A stretch of DNA of 42,657 nt from a virus (taxonomy: Duplodnaviria; Heunggongvirae; Uroviricota; Caudoviricetes), in IMG/VR virus record IMGVR_UViG_2925914267_000007, positions 1 to 42,657 of that record; one strand, 5' to 3'. The notes below the pieces were generated by a model that was given only the letters and a program-made list of their open reading frames with translations, had not been told where the DNA came from and searched no databases. This document shows positions 12,066-12,665 of the stretch, piece by piece. Both the position numbers and the translations under genes were made by a program. Every line of letters begins with the position of its first letter. Within the stretch, counting starts at the first letter, position 1.

Positions 12066-12097
12066 TCAAATAAAAACCGCGTGTAAACGCGGTTTTT
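12066..12097 (-). terminator. intrinsic terminator downstream of the secreted-protein moron
   Basis: Stem AACCGCG / CGCGGTT (loop tgtaaa) with flanking A- and T-runs; strong on the minus strand. Confidence 0.6.
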
Positions 12098-12112
12098 TAT
12101 TAGGTAATAAAA

Positions 12113-12601
12113 TTAAAGATCATAATCAAAATTATGAGTATCTATTCTACATGATGAATAAGTAATTCCGCTTTCACCACTAATATTTACGCCAGCCTTT
12201 ACCTTCCCTGTCTTCGTAACATCAACAAAGAATTGCCCTCTTGGCATTTTAAATGCAAAAGAGAAACCAATAATTTCCGAGGCAAAGTCATTTTCATCCT
12301 CACTAATTGGTACAATAAAAGCCAATGGTGCAGATTGTGAGTTATTTTCAAAATCAAAAACACCAATTCCTTTATTAAACTCGTAGGATGCTTTTTTTAT
12401 TAAAAGAGTTCCACTTGCCGACTTTGCTGGGCATATTACAGACAGTCTATTTATTCCCCCTACATCTAGATCTATATTCTTATCTGCTGAAGTTTTAACG
12501 TTATCTATAAAGTATGTAGCAAGCTGCTTTTCCGTTACTGGCTTCGCAAAGGAGTTTAATGGCAATCCTGCAGCCAACAACAATATAAACATTTTCTTCA
12601 T
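12113..12601 (-). CDS. AT-rich secreted protein with Sec signal peptide; moron inside the tail module
   Basis: Start MKKMFILLLAAGLPLNSFA with RBS AGGAGA; hydrophobic signal then likely cleavage after NSFA; much lower GC than flanking tail genes; own terminator. Confidence 0.6.
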   Translation of the reverse strand: MKKMFILLLAAGLPLNSFAKPVTEKQLATYFIDNVKTSADKNIDLDVGGINRLSVICPAKSASGTLLIKKASYEFNKGIGVFDFENNSQSAPLAFIVPISEDENDFASEIIGFSFAFKMPRGQFFVDVTKTGKVKAGVNISGESGITYSSCRIDTHNFDYDL

Positions 12602-12665
12602 ATTCTCTCCTACATTCAGCACAAACTTTACCACTCAATAACCCTACTTGATTAAAGTAGGGTTA

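Follow-up and report, generated by a model that had tools for sequence, protein, structure and literature searches.

The window analysed here is a 42,657-nucleotide stretch of DNA, positions 1 to 42,657 of IMG/VR virus record IMGVR_UViG_2925914267_000007, and its tail module contains a short gene for an exported protein of 162 amino acids (aa). The evidence supports reading this gene as a moron, that is, an optional, horizontally mobile, AT-rich one-gene cassette, placed at the junction between the tape-measure gene and a Mu N-like gene. A first-pass annotation, made by a model from the letters of the window, had called the region a secreted-protein moron and not a tail component, and our results uphold this: the gene is missing from phage SfIV and from the corresponding junction of 115 Escherichia coli genomes, its base composition is foreign, it carries an export signal, and other cargo occupies the same slot elsewhere. 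The product is very probably an accessory exported periplasmic barrel that forms no part of the tail. The fuller explanation, which joins moron, export, barrel and interference with infection at the envelope stage, is put forward tentatively and as a whole falls somewhat short of probable.

An optional cassette at the tape-measure junction

Phage SfIV has the same tape-measure end and the same N start at 96.5% nucleotide identity, with only 24 bp between them, and is UV-induced, plaque-forming and lysogenising (PMC3851460). Because a plaque-forming phage has this empty junction, the gene is unnecessary for building this tail. The empty SfIV-type junction is present in 115 of 5,426 complete E. 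coli genomes, while the insert is found in ∼100, essentially always with these flanks; ∼1,090 E. coli genomes carry this type of N gene. Functional relatives whose flanks are 96-97% identical lack the insert. SfV, SfI and SfII lack it, as SfIV does, and annotated sets of Mu-type tail genes do not include the exported protein. The gene is carried by ∼2% of complete E. coli genomes, including sequence type 131 (ST131), and by some Salmonella, and the E. coli carriers come from human, animal and food sources. The features at the junction are as follows.

12666..14567, minus strand: tail tape-measure gene, 633 aa, upstream neighbour (PF10145 at 2e-42; annotations of relatives)
12637..12667, no strand assigned: perfect 13-bp inverted repeat with a 5-nt loop, between the tape-measure stop and the gene; no assigned function
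12070..12665, minus strand: inserted cassette, approximate extent, ∼596 bp, GC 0.344 (by comparison with the empty SfIV-type junction)
12607..12611, minus strand: Shine-Dalgarno AGGAG, 5 nt 5' of the ATG (read from the sequence)
12113..12601, minus strand: exported-protein coding sequence, 162 aa, stop included (open reading frame list, sequence)
12545..12601, minus strand: signal peptide, codons 1-19, MKKMFILLLAAGLPLNSFA (by inspection; signal peptidase I site predicted after SFA)
12066..12100, minus strand: intrinsic-terminator-like hairpin, core CCGCG/CGCGG, then UUUUUAUUU (inverted repeat, folding)
10683..12056, minus strand: Mu N-like DNA-circulation/tail gene, 457 aa, downstream neighbour (PF07157 at 7.8e-34; annotations of relatives)

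The flanks match PF10145 (phage minor tail/tape measure) and PF07157 (Mu N DNA-circulation N-terminus), which confirms the placement between tape-measure and N-like genes given in the first-pass annotation. The gene points the same way as the late operon and lies 30-70 bp past the tape-measure stop. Its open reading frame runs from a GTG at 12634 to 12113 on the minus strand (173 aa), and the GTG was rejected as a start; it lacks a ribosome-binding site, and annotated homologues lack the extension. The credible start is the ATG at 12601, which gives 162 aa. Five nucleotides separate this ATG from AGGAG at 12611-12607, in keeping with the strong ribosome-binding site that had been claimed, and the AGGAG is unchanged across 7 near-identical loci. 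The identical 162-aa product appears in RefSeq/GenBank as WP_074638406.1, a 'hypothetical protein' annotated with the same ATG start.

Three hallmarks of a moron in the Juhala/Hendrix sense are seen. The extra DNA is absent at the same position in close relatives, as SfIV and the 115 E. coli genomes attest. The base composition is unlike that of the surrounding genes: the low guanine-plus-cytosine (GC) content described earlier is borne out by a value of 0.346, with 0.258 at third codon positions (GC3), vs 0.519 (GC3 0.544) for the tape-measure gene and 0.552 (GC3 0.583) for the N-like gene, and GC is low in all four lineages of the gene described below. A terminator-like structure of its own follows at 12066-12100, with a caveat from SfV-type junctions to which we return. 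This hairpin has perfect 11-bp arms (12072-12082 / 12087-12097), folds at -20.4 kcal/mol (z = -4.8), is followed by the T run on the coding strand and abuts the N ribosome-binding site immediately 5' of it; hairpin and T run are found on both strands. A simple terminator scan did not pick up the 12066-12100 hairpin, and our guess is that its A/T arms merge with the T run. Rfam searches of the region gave sub-threshold matches only, to the terminator hairpin. Lineages B, C and D have terminators in the same place between the gene and N, with differing sequences. Two loci with a cargo-free SfV-type junction, L004 (4025-4050) and L055 (2125-2150), have a hairpin that resembles a terminator (AGTCCCACTCCGGTGGGATTTTTT on the gene strand) and separates the tape-measure gene from N, and an internal late-operon terminator at this junction may be a native feature of part of the phage group. 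On the other side of the gene, the inverted repeat has arms at 12637-12649 / 12655-12667, of which the right one overlaps the tape-measure stop codon; 0 of 100 shuffles match it, and its fold reaches -18.7 kcal/mol (z = -6.0).

The junction serves other genes as well. Sister prophages with other tape-measure types carry unrelated cargo there, as in the loci listed here.

L009 3574-4104, L054 2171-2701 and L056 2174-2704, minus strand: 176-aa membrane-anchored cargo (locus inspection)
L053 2223-2669, plus strand (opposite strand): membrane-anchored OB-fold cargo (locus inspection)

The 176-aa protein has an N-terminal membrane anchor and is encoded by an AT-rich gene (phrog_5485, no assigned function); it sits at the junction in the three inspected loci, and its gene is present in ∼175 genomes, the junction position having been checked in the listed loci only. 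The OB-fold gene, found in ∼70 genomes, matches phrog_8545, 'superinfection exclusion Sie-like', at E 1.8e-49, and on its opposite strand it has its own upstream region. Besides the exported-protein gene, envelope-targeted cargo of at least three further kinds occurs at the junction, and all cargo products looked at are envelope-directed. SfV and a 43.7-kb plasmid-borne copy are empty of cargo at this point. A literature search returned nothing relevant on a described hotspot at the junction.

Two side observations concern this slot. At L053 2223-2225 an ATA stands where ATG would give an MKKLLKW... signal-anchor N-terminus behind an AAGGTGA ribosome-binding site; the RefSeq start of the OB-fold cargo is a downstream GTG within the hydrophobic segment, and the ATA is thus a non-canonical start codon or else a mutated one. 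In two decayed prophages (L013, E. coli EC05; L056, E. coli 300444) the tape-measure gene is cut by IS903B and N is truncated or has an internal stop, and the junction cargo gene is intact in both, which hints at selection on the cargo (n = 2).

The exported protein and its family

The 162-aa protein with a signal peptide that the first-pass annotation described is indeed present. The signal was called by inspecting the sequence: MKKMFILLLAAGLPLNSFA precedes KP at the predicted cut, with two lysines in the n-region, an 11-residue hydrophobic core and S-F-A at its end (S-x-A at -3/-1). All full-length family members have equivalent n, h and c regions with small residues at -3/-1 in the family alignment. 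Because this pattern is present and a Cys at +1 is absent, the N-terminus indicates that the product is a putative Sec/signal peptidase I substrate and not a lipoprotein; the lipoprotein alternative was rejected for want of a lipobox Cys at the predicted cleavage site.

A profile search of 1.84 billion representative proteins gave 17 hits, one of them spurious, and a word-indexed search of 5.8 billion proteins found no further members. Members are ∼150 aa long and share the motifs CPxPSASG, FxFKMPxGQFFV and AGVNxxGESG, and C57 and C151 are kept in every member covering those positions. The protein matches PHROG 5586 over its full length (E 2.4e-81, positions 1-161 of 161), a PHROG without an assigned function. 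It has no match among the sequence profiles of Pfam, NCBIfam or PDB, and none of the PADLOC defence profiles came up (0 families at E <= 1). When 11 family members were compared with Pfam at E <= 10, nothing but two chance hits was returned, and a literature search on the accessions and the PHROG number found nothing. The family was seen in phage contexts only. We note that three members from metagenome assemblies (P0002, P0003 and P0005) are rare variants without 7-41 internal residues around strands 3-4 of the model described next, with for example ENNSQSAPLAFIVPISEDENDF deleted; they are either real deletion alleles or assembly artefacts.

An AlphaFold model built with 3 sequences was unusable (predicted local distance difference test, pLDDT, 48.7), and one built with 11 family members reached a pLDDT of 86.7 and a predicted template modeling score of 0.79. 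In the latter model the signal peptide is followed by a helix at 24-41, and eight antiparallel strands occupy the stretch from 52 to 153; confidence is low over residues 1-20 (block pLDDT 52 and 63), where no secondary structure is seen. It is a generic 8-stranded beta-barrel, and a close structural relative was not found: Foldseek against PDB and BFVD gave nothing under E 0.001. The model thus suggests a soluble binding-type barrel and no more. The homology and structure searches proposed in the first-pass annotation therefore yielded family members, a PHROG and a confident barrel model, but neither a known profile nor a close structure. Two further candidates were set aside. An outer-membrane barrel of the OmpX/Ail/Lom kind was rejected on the lack of a Pfam match, strands of 5-10 residues and the lack of a C-terminal aromatic signal (the C-terminus reads ...NFDYDL here and ...KIVKPS in relatives). 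SodC was rejected because the metal-binding histidines are absent and the protein has a single His.

An IMG/VR scan for related loci, which used a 4-sequence alignment, and a synteny check placed homologues at the same junction in four diverged tail-module lineages. Pairwise identities between the lineage representatives are given below.

Exported-protein gene: 42-65%
Sheath: 70-87%
Tube: 81-91%
Tape measure: 50-86%
N: 51-74%
P: 61-87%

The exported-protein gene is the most diverged of the module in 6 of 6 lineage pairs, with its neighbours at 50-91%. Divergence this fast would be expected if the protein works at an interface between phages or between phage and host. To judge from these comparisons, the family is an old resident of the junction: it has diversified there into four lineages, has remained AT-rich throughout and has evolved faster than the genes around it. 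The first-pass annotation had held that conservation at this position in related phages as a structural protein with tail-module GC content would speak against a moron. The position is indeed kept in four lineages, but the homologues have a GC content of 0.34-0.41 within loci of 0.48-0.55, are exported rather than structural and are dispensable, so that this objection does not apply.

Distant members (23-36% identity) lie elsewhere than the junction. Two are found in phage-plasmid-like contigs, where their neighbours are ParA, a CI-type repressor, IncFII RepA and PemIK, and one comes after a tape-measure gene and a HIRAN-domain gene. In this last case, an AT-rich metagenomic phage contig (L007), the HIRAN-domain protein has 195 aa and ends in a hydrophobic C-terminal tail; its gene lies at 2387-2974 on the plus strand, between the tape-measure gene and the distant member. 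The HIRAN protein has weak PADLOC matches to the candidate system PDC-M03B, and the pair is an apparent two-gene accessory island at the equivalent position.

The surrounding prophage

The window is an SfIV/SfV-like prophage with a lambdoid backbone and a Mu-like contractile tail, integrated beside dusA. Its content includes an integrase gene (1668-2765), a CI-type repressor, a Q antiterminator, a holin and the contractile tail module. At 542-2765 a Dus-family dihydrouridine synthase gene (minus strand) directly adjoins the tyrosine integrase gene (plus strand), and the prophage appears to be integrated at dusA. The antiterminator lies as follows.

27920..28276, minus strand: Q-type antiterminator (PF06530 at 3.4e-45)

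Its presence is likely the reason that late transcription can pass the hairpins flanking the cassette. Several other features of the prophage were recorded in passing. The GC content of the window is lowest in an island at 27153-27893 (plus strand), where it falls to 0.315. The 246-aa open reading frame of this island runs against the late genes and is flanked by the Q antiterminator and the holin; it has no Pfam match, matches phrog_5814 (no assigned function), and represents a second moron-like insertion, in the classic Q-S position. A low-GC (∼0.40) gene at 3424-4119 (plus strand), a short way into the prophage from its integrase end, encodes a 231-aa DUF4145 protein without a PADLOC match and is a candidate accessory or defence gene. 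An IS3-family transposase is present at 29758-30971 (minus strand), between the DUF968/HNH gene region and a KilA-N gene, and comprises a 296-aa rve-domain open reading frame and an overlapping upstream one of 108 aa; the prophage may be disrupted. Between the lysis genes and the HNH/terminase region, a low-GC 106-aa open reading frame at 24851-25171 (minus strand) gives a borderline match to the GrlR family, a negative regulator of type III secretion, at 26.7 bits vs a cut-off of 26.8. At the far end of the window, past the early region, a YafO-family type II toxin gene (1.9e-21) occupies 41667-42101 (minus strand).

Possible roles in the cell envelope

We propose the following course of events, each step of which is predicted from the sequence, the model or the gene context. 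After export by Sec and removal of the signal peptide by signal peptidase I, the product would be a soluble periplasmic protein of ∼15.6 kDa, the mature form of which may fold as an N-terminal helix and an 8-stranded up-and-down beta-barrel, probably with a C57-C151 disulfide. During lytic growth Q-modified polymerase would read the gene along with the rest of the late operon; the prophage does have a Q gene. The barrel could then act as an envelope binding or blocking protein that hinders the periplasmic stage of infection by an incoming phage, where the blocked step might be passage of the tail tip or tape measure, or digestion of the wall. Because the virion assembles in the cytoplasm, an exported protein would not be part of it. 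We favour a role in periplasmic superinfection exclusion on account of the periplasmic address, the Sie-like OB-fold protein that uses the same slot, the precedent of HK97 gp15 and the rapid divergence, and we regard this role as possible rather than probable. The first-pass annotation had named a periplasmic exclusion factor or a host-interaction protein as candidates, and both are conjectures.

HK97 gene 15 was the first moron described; it adjoins the tape-measure gene, and its product blocks DNA entry depending on the tail of the incoming phage (PMC3594210). Like the gene studied here, this YebO-like superinfection exclusion gene is a one-gene add-on to the tail operon beside the tape measure, has a deviant GC content, is dispensable for the virion and has an envelope-targeted product. 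The two products have no sequence relation, and gp15 is a small inner-membrane protein, whereas ours is a predicted cleaved, soluble periplasmic beta-barrel. Prophage expression and exclusion have been demonstrated for gp15; for the gene studied here both are hypothetical. Soluble precedents also exist, as T4 Spackle (Sp) and P1 Sim are phage-encoded proteins with signal peptides that act in the periplasm and stop a superinfecting phage at envelope penetration or DNA entry. Spackle is helical and not a barrel. Neither showed sequence similarity to the exported protein in the profile search, which returned only the 17 family representatives, and neither was among the matches of the fold search. 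Lambda lom and bor and the sodC genes of Gifsy and Fels are lysogenic-conversion genes for the periplasm or outer membrane lodged among tail genes. They resemble our case as accessory genes in or beside tail modules with envelope-bound products, and there is no homology.

Several observations weigh against the explanation as a whole. A sigma-70 consensus scan and an alignment of the upstream regions disclosed no promoter upstream of the gene in any of the four lineages, and for this reason expression in lysogens is conjectural; a weak extended -10-like TGGTAAAGT upstream of the gene was seen by eye only. A cargo-free SfV-type junction also has a terminator-like hairpin, and because of this the terminator is no proof of an autonomous transcription unit: the hairpin and U run at 12066-12100 that underlie the earlier claim of an own downstream terminator stand, but are less diagnostic than that claim supposed. 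As to a detail of the first-pass annotation, the palindrome, first reported as a perfect 10-bp repeat at 12640-12664, is present and at 13 bp longer than stated, but it is not conserved. It is perfect in the window and two near-identical loci; in 4 of 7 near-identical loci (L001, L011-L013) the left arm is ATATAACTACTT, with three uncompensated changes, and the repeat is absent from lineages B-D in the alignment of upstream regions. A U run does not follow it on either strand. Within-allele pN/pS (the ratio of nonsynonymous to synonymous polymorphism) is ∼0.6-0.8, a value that comes from only ∼13 differences and is uninformative. Lastly, a gene with a part in the phage's own lytic cycle could equally be expected to stay in one place for so long in four lineages.

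This last point leads to the idea of a late lytic-cycle helper, expressed with the tail operon only and acting in the periplasm as the cell dies, where it might keep progeny off debris or modulate lysis, and not a moron expressed in the lysogen. The co-orientation with the late operon close behind the tape-measure stop, the lack of a detectable promoter, the same position kept over deep divergence and a Q antiterminator that could read through the hairpins all agree with it. The gene is nevertheless dispensable in SfIV, SfV, SfI and SfII, the same junction accepts unrelated genes, one of them on the opposite strand with its own upstream region, and distant members adjoin repressor and partition genes, not late genes. 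We consider such a helper unlikely.

Two further explanations accept a periplasmic barrel and assign it other work. It could be an inhibitor or immunity protein that neutralises a wall-degrading enzyme and so raises the fitness of the lysogen, in the manner of PliC/MliC, Ivy, PliG or PhiA; host lysozyme, a muramidase of a type VI secretion system or bacteriocin, or a phage tail lysin would be the target. With regard to PliC/MliC and the Brucella PhiA inhibitors, no family member matches Pfam MliC, and for PliC/MliC the structural score does not exceed that of unrelated barrels, with the extra N-terminal helix of the exported protein falling outside those folds as aligned. The chance that the protein belongs to this class seems small. 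Alternatively, it could be host-fitness or virulence cargo, a calycin-like barrel that captures a small hydrophobic or toxic molecule in the periplasm (bile salts, fatty acids or antimicrobial compounds, for instance) to the benefit of the lysogen in the gut, unrelated to phages. Bile-acid-binding proteins, fatty-acid-binding proteins and lipocalins are indeed the top (weak) Foldseek matches, many of the strand positions that face inward are Phe, Ile or Val, and the gene is widespread in E. coli from human, animal and food sources (including ST131) and in Salmonella. Those matches are, however, insignificant (E >= 0.05, TM < 0.4), the family has been seen in phage contexts only, and divergence as fast as this is unusual for a conserved ligand binder, so that we again judge this explanation improbable. 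That the gene encodes an AT-rich structural or assembly protein of the tail, as its syntenic place inside the tail module in four lineages might suggest, is very improbable in view of the Sec signal peptide and predicted soluble periplasmic product, its absence from functional relatives with 96-97% identical flanks and from annotated Mu-type tail sets, and its replacement by unrelated genes at the junction.

Returning to periplasmic exclusion, a bolder version would hold that the proteins are a new family of soluble periplasmic exclusion factors in which the barrel intercepts the tail tip or tape measure of incoming contractile-tailed phages, or their wall digestion, that the junction is a hotspot at which exclusion genes are swapped, and that the divergence reflects an arms race. 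We regard it as doubtful, and offer it as speculation.

The element is of a known kind, a moron of the tail operon, and carries an uncharacterised member of a phage-restricted family of exported beta-barrels. What this analysis adds is that the junction between tape measure and N in SfV-like prophages holds several envelope-directed cargo genes, and that the family, AT-rich and fast-evolving, appears to have long resided there in four lineages. Envelope-acting add-on genes of prophages decide which phages infect a strain and can alter the fitness of the host. If the exclusion role were false, the gene would be one more anonymous moron; if it were true, a soluble periplasmic mechanism would join a short list, with relevance to host range in phage therapy.
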